From Escherichia coli (GTDB lineage Bacteria; Pseudomonadota; Gammaproteobacteria; Enterobacterales; Enterobacteriaceae): DNA of 64,000 nt. Positions 59,660 through 63,665 of the stretch are shown here, piece by piece. Where the stretch lies: NCBI RefSeq assembly GCF_046105845.1, contig NZ_CP151004.1; one strand, written 5' to 3'. A program made the translations under genes and the position numbers. The notes beneath the pieces are model-generated. The model was not told the DNA's origin. It saw only the letters and a list, made by a program, of their open reading frames with translations, and searched no databases. The first letter of the stretch is position 1; the number at the start of each line of letters is the position of its first letter.

Positions 59660-61201
59660 ATGGCTTTTGCCTCATTAATTGAACGCCAGCGCATTCGCCT
59701 GCTGCTGGCGTTATTATTCGGTGCCTGCGGAACGCTGGCCTTCTCTCCTTACGATGTCTGGCCTGCGGCGATTATTTCGCTGATGGGGCTTCAGGCGCTG
59801 ACCTTTAACCGCCGTCCACTCCAGTCTGCCGCTATTGGCTTTTGCTGGGGATTTGGCCTCTTTGGCAGCGGTATTAACTGGGTCTATGTCAGCATCGCGA
59901 CTTTTGGCGGAATGCCTGGCCCGGTTAACATCTTCCTGGTGGTGCTGCTGGCGGCGTATTTGTCGCTGTATACCGGACTGTTTGCTGGCGTGCTGTCGCG
60001 CCTGTGGCCGAAAACCACCTGGCTGCGCGTGGCGATTGCCGCCCCTGCTCTCTGGCAAGTGACCGAGTTTCTGCGCGGTTGGGTGCTGACTGGTTTCCCG
60101 TGGTTACAGTTCGGCTATAGCCAGATTGATGGCCCGTTAAAAGGGCTGGCACCAATAATGGGCGTGGAAGCCATTAACTTCCTGCTAATGATGGTTAGCG
60201 GCCTGCTGGCACTGGCGTTGGTCAAACGCAACTGGCGTCCGCTGGCGGTGGCCGTCGTGCTGTTCGCCCTTCCCTTCCCGCTGCGTTACATCCAGTGGTT
60301 TACCCCGCAACCGGAGAAAACCATTCAGGTTTCGATGGTTCAGGGCGATATTCCGCAATCACTGAAATGGGACGGAGACCAGCTTCTTAATACGCTGAAG
60401 ATTTACTACAACGCAACGGCACCGCTGATGGGCAAATCATCGTTGATTATCTGGCCGGAGTCGGCGATAACCGATCTGGAAATTAATCAGCAACCGTTCC
60501 TCAAAGCACTGGACGGTGAGTTGCGCGATAAAGGTAGCTCGCTGGTAACCGGGATTGTTGACGCGCGTCTCAATAAGCAGAACCGCTACGATACTTACAA
60601 CACCATCATCACGCTGGGGAAAGGTGCGCCGTACAGCTACGAATCAGCCGATCGCTATAACAAAAACCATCTGGTGCCGTTTGGCGAGTTTGTCCCGCTG
60701 GAGTCGATTCTGCGTCCGTTAGCGCCGTTCTTTGATCTGCCGATGTCGTCGTTCAGCCGTGGGCCATATATCCAGCCACCGCTGTCGGTAAACGGTATTG
60801 AGCTTACTGCGGCTATTTGCTACGAGATCATTCTCGGCGAGCAAGTGCGTGATAACTTCCGCCCGGATACCGATTATCTGCTGACTATCTCCAACGATGC
60901 ATGGTTTGGTAAGTCTATTGGTCCATGGCAGCACTTCCAGATGGCGCGAATGCGTGCGCTGGAGTTGGCGCGCCCGCTACTGCGTAGCACCAACAACGGC
61001 ATTACGGCGGTGATTGGTCCGCAGGGTGAGATTCAGGCGATGATCCCGCAATTCACCCGCGAGGTGTTAACCACTAACGTGACGCCGACTACCGGACTTA
61101 CACCGTACGCACGTACCGGCAACTGGCCTCTGTGGGTGCTGACGGCACTGTTTGGTTTTGCTGCTGTGCTGATGAGTCTGCGTCAGCGACGTAAACGTTG
61201 A
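59660..61201 (+). CDS. lnt: Apolipoprotein N-acyltransferase
   Basis: 513-aa [50 protein letters not shown]...; C-terminal nitrilase-like domain. Confidence 0.96.
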
Positions 61202-61305
61202 GGTGAATGATGCGCTGGCCTGCAAAATTGCATCATTTTTGCAGGCCAGATAAACCGTTAACACCGCATCCGGTATCAACAAAACATACTTTCTCATTAA
61301 GCGGT

Positions 61306-61332
61306 GGGGCGTGATTATCATGCCCCTTTTTT
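61306..61332 (+). terminator. Rho-independent terminator of lnt, abutting the stop codon of the convergent rhomboid gene
   Basis: GGGGC-gtgattatcat-GCCCC followed by TTTTTT; ends 1 nt before the minus-strand stop at 61334. Confidence 0.65.
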
Positions 61333-61333
61333 C

Positions 61334-63211
61334 TTACGGTTCAGGGATACAAGCCACATTGCCATATTGGGGATGACGAATAATTGCCTGCGGATCAAGC
61401 GAGCGCGTCCTGTCCAGTTGGATTAACCCGTTCTTCGCCATAACAAATATTTTTCTACCATCCGCTGAAAAACGAAGGTGATTAACGTAGCTGGCAGGAT
61501 AAACGCCAATAATCTGCCCGGCATTAATATTGAGCTGGATGACATAACCTTGCAGGCCATATGACACCAACGCTAAATATTGACCGTCCGGGCTAATACC
61601 CTCAACGGAATAAACGCTCCTGCTACACCATTGCGTCATAATACTGGCTTGTTGATCCTCAGCTCTTATACGTGAAATCCCCTGGCTATCGGCAAAAATA
61701 ATCTCTCCATTTTTTGGTCGGAATCCCATCGCAGAAACGACACCACGCGCATCACCTGCGGGAAAGTCTTCTTTCTGATGCGTGATGGTATTGATGCGTA
61801 CAATGTCACCTCTGACCATACCGGGTATCAACAATGTTTTTTCATCCGGGGAAAGTGCCATAACCCAGGCACCAGGTTTATTACTCGTCCCCGTCCCGTC
61901 GTATTTCTCCAGCGGGATATCCGCCACATGCTGATAAGTCACCAGATCAATGGCTGACACACTATTACTGGTGCGATTCATCACCCAAGCTTTTGTGCCA
62001 TCACGCGAGAGGATAAGACTGTCAGGATGTGCACCGGTGGTAATCGACTGAATAATCTCCCCCGTCGCCACGTTAATGACCGATAACGCATTCGCTTCAA
62101 ATGAAGTCGCATAAAGCAACGTTTCATCCGGGCTTAGCGCCAGCGATCTGACGCCCTGATCTTTACAGCCACCACAATGTTTGACTGACTTTTCTTTCGC
62201 TATGGGGGCTGTAAAGGTATGCAGGATTTTCTTTTGTCCGAGGTCGAAAACAACAATGCTGTTGGTGTTTTCAATTGCGGCATACAACGTATTACCATCC
62301 CGACTGATCGCCATATCATGGATATCGGAAATCTCAGCGAGCAAATCACCACTGGCCTGTTCACGACTTACCGGAGCGGATAATGTTTCCCTGAGGGCGT
62401 TGCGTTCCTCCGCTAACTGCTGCTTTTTTTGCCGTCGCTCTTGTTCAATCTCCTGTGGATAAAACTCTTCACGCAGGCTTTGCCTGACTTGTAAAACTGA
62501 CTCACCCATCTGCTGCTGCGCAAGCCAGATAGCCCCGGTCAGAAGAAGACTACCCGCAACAATAATCCCGCCTTCCGTAACAAGCCGGTTTTGCCCATAT
62601 AAACGCGCACTCAGCCCCCCCATCGCGCCACCCGCAATCAGGCCGCCAATGTGGCAAGCGTTATCTATTCCTGTTTGCCGGGCACCGTACAACAGTGTCA
62701 GCGCCACCATACCCAGCAGAGGAAATACTCGCCGCTGGTTTTTATGGTGTGTGCCCGCACCTGAAGCAAGCTGTGTTGCTATCGCAGCGCCAGCTATTCC
62801 CATAATCGCCCCGGATGCCCCAACGCTGATGACTATCTGCTCACTTTCGCGTAACGCATAACAGGCACTGATTAGCCCACCAAAGACGCCGGAGAATAAC
62901 CAGATAATCAGAAGTCGCCATTTCCCCAGTATCCGCTCCGCCACTGCCCCCACCACCAGAAGTGCAAACATATTCATCAGCAAATGGGGAAAACTACTGT
63001 GCAGAAAGACACTGCTCAATAAGCGCCAGGATTCGCCCGACAACGTGAGAGAAGTAACGTTAGCACCGAGATGGATGAGTGCGGATTGATCGACTTCTTC
63101 ATAACTCATCCATTGTGCGAGGTAACAAAATATCCCAACACAGAGCGCAAAAAGGATAAGGGTTATTGCGGGTAATTGAACATTTAACGGCTTAACCGAA
63201 GATGCAGACAT
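61334..63211 (-). CDS. Rhomboid-family intramembrane serine protease fused to a C-terminal seven-bladed YVTN/YncE-like beta-propeller domain (625 aa)
   Basis: N-terminal part: seven hydrophobic segments, L1-loop WR (res 62-63), TM2 H-x4-H-x3-N (HSSFPHLLMN), TM4 GASGA (Ser133) and TM6 ACHIGGLIAG (His187), i.e. a complete rhomboid catalytic signature. C-terminal part (res ~300-625): seven repeats of the form SxDGxxLYV.N..SNsVSVID. RBS AAGGAAGAAA upstream. Family assignment by eye. Confidence 0.85.
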   Translation of the reverse strand: MSASSVKPLNVQLPAITLILFALCVGIFCYLAQWMSYEEVDQSALIHLGANVTSLTLSGESWRLLSSVFLHSSFPHLLMNMFALLVVGAVAERILGKWRLLIIWLFSGVFGGLISACYALRESEQIVISVGASGAIMGIAGAAIATQLASGAGTHHKNQRRVFPLLGMVALTLLYGARQTGIDNACHIGGLIAGGAMGGLSARLYGQNRLVTEGGIIVAGSLLLTGAIWLAQQQMGESVLQVRQSLREEFYPQEIEQERRQKKQQLAEERNALRETLSAPVSREQASGDLLAEISDIHDMAISRDGNTLYAAIENTNSIVVFDLGQKKILHTFTAPIAKEKSVKHCGGCKDQGVRSLALSPDETLLYATSFEANALSVINVATGEIIQSITTGAHPDSLILSRDGTKAWVMNRTSNSVSAIDLVTYQHVADIPLEKYDGTGTSNKPGAWVMALSPDEKTLLIPGMVRGDIVRINTITHQKEDFPAGDARGVVSAMGFRPKNGEIIFADSQGISRIRAEDQQASIMTQWCSRSVYSVEGISPDGQYLALVSYGLQGYVIQLNINAGQIIGVYPASYVNHLRFSADGRKIFVMAKNGLIQLDRTRSLDPQAIIRHPQYGNVACIPEP

Positions 63212-63368
63212 AAGGTGTTTCTTCCTTGAAAAGACAGGTAAAAAGCATTTTTCCCGTGTGCAGTTATCATCCCGGCAAACGTCCCATGCCGAAAAGATAA
63301 CTCTGTCCGAAATATGACTTTTTCAGCCTAAAATTACAATCGTAATTAATTCATCCCTAAGTATTTTT

Positions 63369-63384
63369 TGGCATGTAAGTTGCT
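63369..63384 (+). promoter_or_regulatory. Candidate sigma54 promoter upstream of gltI
   Basis: TGGCATGTAAGTTGCT: the GG and GC dinucleotides are spaced exactly as in the -24/-12 consensus TGGCAC-N5-TTGCW. Confidence 0.5.
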
Positions 63385-63665
63385 TTATTTACTGTGTAAG
63401 CAATGAAATCAGCCGCGACGCAACCGGGTTGCACCACCACAAATCAGCGGTAGCACCAAAAAGGTGCAGTTTAAGAATTTTGCTTCGGAATGGTGCGGCG
63501 CAACTCGCAAAAACAAACAATAAAACAGCAATATCTTTACATTTAGCCAAACTAAATGTTACCTAACAGGCACAACACTGCACAATAAAGTTGCAGACGA
63601 TAACAACACAAACACTCACAACGGGTATCCATGCGTTCTTAACGCAGAAGATAAAGGAGTTGGAT

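Follow-up and report, generated by a model that had tools for sequence, protein, structure and literature searches.

The 64,000-nucleotide stretch of Escherichia coli DNA analysed here (the window) encodes on its reverse strand a 625-aa protein that, from its sequence, would combine a rhomboid intramembrane serine protease of seven transmembrane (TM) helices with a C-terminal β-propeller predicted to be periplasmic. Within this propeller, the initial annotation had pointed to a C-x-x-C motif (HCGGCK) at about 62150-62200 and had proposed that it could form a redox-active disulfide or a metal ligand with a sensing role. The motif is real and can be placed exactly, inside that interval (Table 1). 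This raises the question of what two neighbouring cysteines do in the exported domain of a membrane protease. The reading favoured here, to which we give a probability of about 0.7, is that C346 and C349 form a structural disulfide that staples an extended loop at its tip, on what would be the partner-binding face of the propeller.

Table 1. Position of the rhom7 orthologue and of its features in the window (residue numbers refer to the 625-aa protein).
Feature	Position	Strand	Basis or remark
rhom7 orthologue CDS, 625 aa	61334-63211	-	ORF list
Rhomboid core, residues 59-199	62615-63037	-	Pfam PF01694
Catalytic Ser133	62813-62815	-	Rhomboid core
Catalytic His187	62651-62653	-	Rhomboid core
Seventh TM helix, residues 209-233	62513-62587	-	AF2 helix; hydropathy segment 210-232
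Charged helical linker, residues 237-276	62384-62503	-	AF2 helices 237-250 and 253-276
Seven-bladed YVTN-type β-propeller, residues 289-625	61337-62347	-	TIGR02276, phmmer, Foldseek, AF2 strands
Extended inter-blade loop, residues 335-356	62144-62209	-	DSSP coil, both AF2 models
C346-G-G-C349 (TGT GGT GGC TGT)	62165-62176	-	Translation; probable intraloop disulfide
C529, first residue past blade 5 strand D	61625-61627	-	Probable disulfide partner of C621
C621, C-terminal tail	61349-61351	-	Probable disulfide partner of C529

The gene is flanked by lnt (59660-61201, + strand) on one side and by gltI (from 63667, + strand) on the other. RefSeq names its product 'rhomboid family intramembrane serine protease', and the gene was found in 3231 of 5426 complete E. 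coli genomes. An antisense ORF listed mechanically inside it (62181-62462, + strand) is without supporting evidence. The protein is 93% identical, with 100% coverage, to two S. sonnei proteins (P0013 and P0016) carrying the name Shigella sonnei rhomboid. In that species, SSON_0610 was named Rhom7 and described as an active rhomboid with Ser133 and His187 as catalytic residues; seven TM domains were predicted by Phobius, and the C-terminal domain was suggested to lie on the periplasmic side (Liu et al., EMBO J 2020, PMC7232013). The E. coli protein agrees with Rhom7 in its identity over the full length, in its seven TM helices followed by a C-terminal domain and in the positions of S133 and H187. 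It has the same HCGGCK loop and no substantive sequence difference from Rhom7 (UniProt Q3Z4D6). As judged from these sequence features, it is the orthologue of S. sonnei Rhom7.

The gene and the protease are already known and characterised, and a cysteine pair is ordinary for an exported domain. In the literature searched, no description of the Rhom7 propeller or of its cysteines was found: the words 'propeller' and 'cysteine' each occur 0 times in the Rhom7 paper (PMC7232013), and a 2025 review holds nothing further on the C-terminal domain. Relative to this literature, the identification of a YVTN propeller bearing two conserved cysteine pairs at the C-terminus of Rhom7 is an addition at the level of annotation.

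Residues 59-199 match the rhomboid family PF01694 with 97 bits (cut-off 22.6, E=1.4e-27). The residues W62-R63, H76, N80, G131-A-S133-G134 and H187, which correspond to the WR (loop L1), HxxxN (TM2), GxSG (TM4) and His (TM6) signatures of rhomboids, are invariant in alignments of 21 sequences. Relatives of the core include proteins labelled 'GluP' (jgi). Two AlphaFold2 (AF2) models, obtained from different alignments (A1 and the more diverse A6), agree with each other (mean pLDDT 83 and 84). In both, TM helices span residues 15-32, 74-95, 97-122, 132-149, 152-178, 184-203 and 209-233. Loops rich in Lys and Arg follow TM2, TM4 and TM6, and this distribution, read from the sequence, fits an N-in/C-out orientation. 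The N-terminus of the rhomboid core is cytoplasmic. Because a seventh TM helix is present, the C-terminal domain is predicted to be periplasmic, as the initial annotation had it. Between membrane and propeller, the part of the gene encoding the charged linker includes an A7 run (T7 on the + strand, 62424-62430), at which pseudogene alleles are frameshifted.

The description of the C-terminal domain as a β-propeller is likewise upheld. The YVTN repeat model TIGR02276 scores 58.3 bits (cut-off 27.85), phmmer aligns the propeller with 1l0q, the S-layer propeller of M. mazei, at E=1e-26, and the best Foldseek matches are 1l0q (probability 1.00) and 5c2v_B (hydrazine synthase beta). The DSSP strand pattern gives seven four-stranded blades in both AF2 models, in which the last blade is probably closed by an N-terminal strand (289-292). 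Rhom7 has its repeat family and its fold in common with the propellers of M. mazei (1L0Q), E. coli YncE (3VGZ) and hydrazine synthase beta (5C2V), none of which is fused to a membrane protease. No Cys-bearing loop between blades 1 and 2 was seen in the sequence alignments with these three proteins, most of which start past the loop; the alignment with YncE spans it, with no Cys aligned.

The two cysteines of the motif sit within this loop (335-356, APIAKEKSVKHCGGCKDQGVRS), whose 22 residues join strand D of blade 1 (328-334) to strand A of blade 2 (357-359). Only 3-5 residues make up the D-to-A connections between blades 2 and 3, 5 and 6, and 6 and 7; those between blades 3 and 4 (18 residues, also of low confidence) and blades 4 and 5 (12 residues) are long as well. 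A predicted structure, which the initial annotation had named as a check, does locate the pair, in a coil loop between blades 1 and 2, at a confidence that is low: the mean pLDDT of the block is 48 and values at 341-345 are below 50 in both models. By convention, the D-to-A loops of a propeller lie on its 'top' face, commonly the face that binds partners. C529 belongs to the D-to-A connection between blades 5 and 6, and the same convention therefore puts the 1/2 and 5/6 connections on one face.

In the membrane part of the protein, cysteines are found at positions 24, 29, 117 and 186, and in the C-terminal part at 346, 349, 529 and 621. Of the two further cysteines reported by the initial annotation, that at 621 is correct and the one given as 528 is residue 529. 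Residues 620-621 form a β-bridge in both AF2 models. H345-C346-G347-G348-C349-K350 (context KSVKHCGGCKDQG, codons TGTGGTGGCTGT) is the sole C-x-x-C of the protein. If four Cys are scattered randomly over 385 residues, about 3% of the trials contain a C-x-x-C, which is mildly unlikely for one protein and unremarkable over a 64-kb window. Taken by itself, this frequency is weak evidence against chance.

The conservation of the pair among homologues, also named as a check in the initial annotation, was followed in 21 non-redundant full-length members having both rhomboid and propeller (alignment A6). They come from three database searches, show 24-56% identity to the 625-aa protein and include a Klebsiella aerogenes sequence and one that carries the label Providencia. 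A profile built on alignment A5, from a distant clade, contributed eight full-length members (P0334-P0341). A profile built on alignment A1, which E. coli sequences dominate, gave no further family members, and a HMMER search with the propeller only, dominated by giant multi-repeat YVTN proteins, gave no usable orthologues. Scanning contigs with a 5-sequence alignment (A3) identified four loci, all of the Escherichia type.

The loop pair is kept in 19 of the 21 members, which indicates that it is under selection. All four Cys columns are 90-95% conserved (C346, C349 and C529, 90%; C621, 95%; n=21) and stand within the 16 best-conserved of the 386 columns of the C-terminal domain. The remaining positions of the loop are no better conserved than an average propeller column. 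The spacing of the two cysteines is itself variable: five members have C-x2-C, thirteen have C-x4-C and one has C-x6-C. C-x2-C is limited to an Escherichia-like clade made of the 625-aa protein and four relatives at 53-56% identity (HCGGC, HCSSC, RCSHC, RCSDC). The inner dipeptide (GG, SS, SH or SD) thus varies even among orthologues at 50-60% identity. In the 13 members with C-x4-C, the consensus is G-C-x-x-N-x-C-R-G-x-G, and the Escherichia C-x2-C can be regarded as a shortened form of this common family motif. The flanking residues also change: relatives show R, G or K, or a gap, in place of H345, and S, G, R, A or E in place of K350.

In P0038 (K. aerogenes) and P0039, both loop cysteines are lost and C529 and C621 are kept; their loop is four residues shorter in the A6 alignment. 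In P0337, C529 and C621 are both lost and the loop pair is kept. Paired loss has thus occurred in two independent events. P0036 has the single loss C529Y, which leaves an unpaired Cys. The C-terminal domain accordingly contains four Cys in 17 members, two in 3 and three in 1 (n=21). This loss pattern is drawn from 21 non-redundant members and 3 loss events. Since the losses are pairwise and independent, they point to the pairings 346-349 and 529-621, and to each of the two pairs being dispensable independently of the other. Moreover, P0038 and P0036 occupy the same slot as rhom7 here (lnt / rhom7 / gltI) and are positional orthologues. P0038 is full-length, with its catalytic Ser and His and its propeller intact, which argues that the cysteine pair is dispensable for a gene that is otherwise maintained.

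The periplasm contains DsbA, which oxidises consecutive cysteines as they emerge, and the Cys counts of exported bacterial proteins are biased to even numbers. For cysteines at i and i+3, bonding distance is always attainable. Oxidation of consecutive cysteines by DsbA would produce exactly the pairings 346-349 and 529-621. Whereas the motif, its place in the loop, the conservation pattern and the identity of the protein follow directly from the data, we infer that the domain is periplasmic and that its cysteines are oxidised and paired in this way. During export into the oxidising periplasm, the domain would acquire a C346-C349 bond, presumably introduced by DsbA, and this bond would close and stiffen the tip of the long, otherwise variable loop between blades 1 and 2. 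C529 and C621 would form another, independent disulfide and so pin the C-terminal tail onto the connection between blades 5 and 6. The cysteines would then be stabilisers of the fold of a domain that probably binds substrates or partners, rather than a catalytic or sensing centre. The even number of cysteines, their pairwise and independent loss, the variable ring size with variable inner and flanking residues, and the dispensability of the pair all argue for this structural reading.

Could the pair instead act as a redox switch? Disulfides of C-x2-C loops are strained and possibly redox-labile. A strained C-x-x-C might open and close with the redox state of the periplasm (aerobic versus anaerobic) and thereby tune how Rhom7 engages orphan subunits of anaerobic complexes. 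The retention of the pair in most members, and its place in a D-to-A connection on what is presumably the partner-binding face, would suit such a role. So would the nature of the Rhom7 substrates, orphan HybA and FdnH, which are Fe-S subunits of anaerobic respiratory complexes (PMC7232013). A regulatory function of extramembrane domains is also possible in bacterial rhomboids, an example being YqgP/GluP of B. subtilis (Began et al., EMBO J 2020). YqgP/GluP has a 6+1 TM core, its rhomboid core is related to that of Rhom7 and it carries, as here, an extracytoplasmic C-terminal repeat domain, its extramembrane domains being implicated in regulation and quality control. However, its C-terminal domain is a TPR domain, the sensing of metal is attributed to the cytosolic N-terminal domain, and no Cys motif is known to take part.

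Against the switch stand the changes of spacing (x2, x4 or x6) and of inner residues, the intact syntenic orthologues that lack the pair and the finding that the C-terminal domain is unnecessary for cleavage of a model substrate by Rhom7 (PMC7232013). The motif has its spacing in common with DsbA (CPHC), DsbC (CGYC) and thioredoxin (CGPC), of which the Dsb proteins are also periplasmic. Nevertheless, a thioredoxin-like redox centre has to lie at the N-terminus of a helix within the thioredoxin fold, and its C-x2-C spacing has to be constant and its dipeptide tuned. In the AF2 models, where confidence in the loop is low, C346-C349 lies in DSSP coil away from the N-terminus of any helix and would therefore have no helix dipole at its disposal. 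The Pfam and NCBIfam searches of the 625-aa protein returned no thioredoxin-family match, and neither dipeptide nor spacing is conserved. A redox switch is thus unlikely, the present evidence being against it; if real, it would provide the first description of a redox input into a bacterial rhomboid. More doubtful still is a specific version in which a reducing or copper-stressed periplasm opens the loop as a redox-gated latch and alters recognition of the orphan Fe-S subunits HybA and FdnH by Rhom7. Such a latch would make Rhom7 a rhomboid protease with a direct periplasmic redox input.

It could also be imagined that a metal ion, for instance Cu(I), Zn or Ni, is held by H345, C346 and C349, perhaps with the help of C529 and C621, so that the propeller would sense a metal. 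H-C-x-x-C resembles short metal-binding motifs, and the substrates provide a link to metalloenzymes (PMC7232013). Nonetheless, H345 is not conserved, the spacing of the cysteines varies and disulfides are favoured in the periplasm. A joint site of four cysteines was rejected as unlikely: the two pairs are lost independently of each other and belong to loops four blades apart (1/2 and 5/6). We consider a metal ligand very unlikely, about on a par with the latch. The sensing function put forward in the initial annotation, whether by a redox-active disulfide or by a metal ligand, is accordingly not borne out, in view of the variable spacing, dipeptide, H345 and K350, of the missing thioredoxin fold and of the intact orthologues without the pair.

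Two cysteines might simply be adjacent without having any role. The frequency of about 3% per protein is non-negligible over the whole window, and orthologues of the K. aerogenes type manage without the pair. On the other side, both columns are 90% conserved across clades at 25-30% identity and rank within the 16 best of 386, and the loop cysteines, with P0019 as the one exception, are missing either together or on pseudogene alleles. Chance appears largely refuted by this conservation, and we hold it to be somewhat less probable even than a metal site. Finally, covalent attachment of a heme c, with CGGCK as the NrfA-type C-x-x-C-K variant, has nothing in its favour beyond the literal string C-G-G-C-K. 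A heme c site requires CxxCH or a conserved CxxCK as in NrfA, whereas K350 is replaced in relatives, most members have C-x4-C without a following His or Lys, the Pfam and NCBIfam searches gave no cytochrome domain and the protein has no canonical CxxCH; with neither K350 nor the spacing conserved, heme attachment is rejected as having practically no chance of being correct.

As read from sequence and models, then, the pattern does not fit a sensor, be it a redox centre of the thioredoxin type or a conserved metal site, nor does it fit heme attachment, and a regulatory role of the pair, also of the strained C-x2-C ring in the Escherichia clade, is unlikely. A structural disulfide would have modest consequences, the pair behaving as a routine stabilising bond.

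Variation within E. coli gives a further view of the motif. HCGGCK is present in every loop-covering cluster at 90% identity save three, in which C349 is replaced by Trp (TGT to TGG): P0019, P0269 (555 member sequences) and P0270 (157 member sequences). In complete genomes, an exact 58-mer covering this stretch was found with TGG (C349W) in 77 cases and with TGT (Cys) in 2177. In the other frequent variants of the same stretch, which carry A358T or Q352H, neither Cys codon is altered. At one locus (L009), the gene with TGG is also split by a 1-nt deletion in the A7 run within the linker, and both of the two inspected complete genomes with a C349W allele have it annotated as a 'frameshifted' pseudogene. 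In P0019, from a short contig, C349W occurs on a full-length ORF with an in-frame deletion of 12 linker codons and leaves an unpaired Cys. P0019 aside, loss of C349 in E. coli was thus seen solely on non-intact alleles, a distribution which suggests that Cys349 is retained while rhom7 is functional. Natural variants lacking cysteines, both the K. aerogenes type and the C349W alleles of E. coli, offer ready comparisons for studies of the propeller.

The gene for Rhom7, a rhomboid protease extended by a predicted-periplasmic beta-propeller, shows presence/absence polymorphism in E. coli (gene with flanks, 61270-63420): of 5426 complete genomes, 3231 carry it. When the gene is lacking, the match is limited to the 240 bp proximal to gltI, and in some of these genomes an IS5 occupies the site. 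K. aerogenes and a further enterobacterial contig likewise have rhom7 in the slot between lnt and gltI. Because the E. coli polymorphism is accompanied by a chromosomal slot common to these relatives, the data suggest that rhom7 is an ancestral gene that was repeatedly lost.

The window DNA belongs to a divergent lineage of Escherichia. The lnt gene (59660-61201) is about 97% identical to that of nearly all of 5424 E. coli genomes and reaches 99% only in strain AST215; the rhom7 region shows 94-96% identity to most E. coli genomes and 99.1% to AST215. Three rhomboid-plus-propeller homologues of 672-680 aa (P0339, P0340, P0341) have a GCSSNRCRG loop in common, and one of them is labeled by NCBI 'rhomboid protease AarA [Providencia rustigianii]'. 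The characterised AarA of P. stuartii is, however, a much shorter protein of about 281 aa, and the name was probably over-transferred. Two short MAG contigs (L001, L002) encode a Rhom7 C-terminal domain 94% identical to that of the window. Their bins are 'Collinsella sp.' in one case, which looks like an Escherichia contig put in the wrong bin, and 'Proteobacteria bacterium' in the other.

Within the propeller, conservation of the C529/C621 pair at least equals that of the CxxC pair (C346 and C349), and both residues are lost together in the family member P0337. It is probable that a C529-C621 disulfide fastens the C-terminal tail to the connection between blades 5 and 6. As modeled, a second long inter-blade loop, joining blades 3 and 4, is a D-to-A connection (strand D of one blade to strand A of the next), located on the same propeller face as the CxxC loop. 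Its sequence varies among relatives, and its pLDDT falls below 50 at residues 438-443 in the first AlphaFold2 model and at 440-442 in the second.

Features of rhom7 and of the lnt-rhom7 gap (window coordinates)
Feature	Position	Strand	Remarks
C529	61625-61627	-	90% conserved
C621	61349-61351	-	95% conserved
Long blade 3-to-4 loop	61859-61912	-	residues 434-451; EKYDGTGTSNKPGAWV...
Terminator-like hairpin	61306-61326	+	in lnt-rhom7 gap; GGGGCGTGATTATCATGCCCC then T6
Terminator-like hairpin	61255-61282	-	in lnt-rhom7 gap
Homopolymer run	62424-62430		T7 on + strand, A7 in rhom7; in linker helix
Antisense ORF	62181-62462	+	93 aa, TTG start; opposite rhom7

In one E. coli lineage, deletion of 1 nt in the A7 run splits the gene into separate rhomboid and propeller ORFs. 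This allele, which also carries C349W, was matched at ≥99% in 108 complete genomes and is annotated as 'frameshifted' in both of the two genomes inspected.

The lnt and rhom7 genes are convergent and separated by 132 bp; of the two hairpins found there, that of the + strand, with its T6 run, lies directly beyond the rhom7 stop codon. Opposite rhom7, the 93-aa antisense ORF is purely mechanical. Its start is found a few bases past the CxxC codons.
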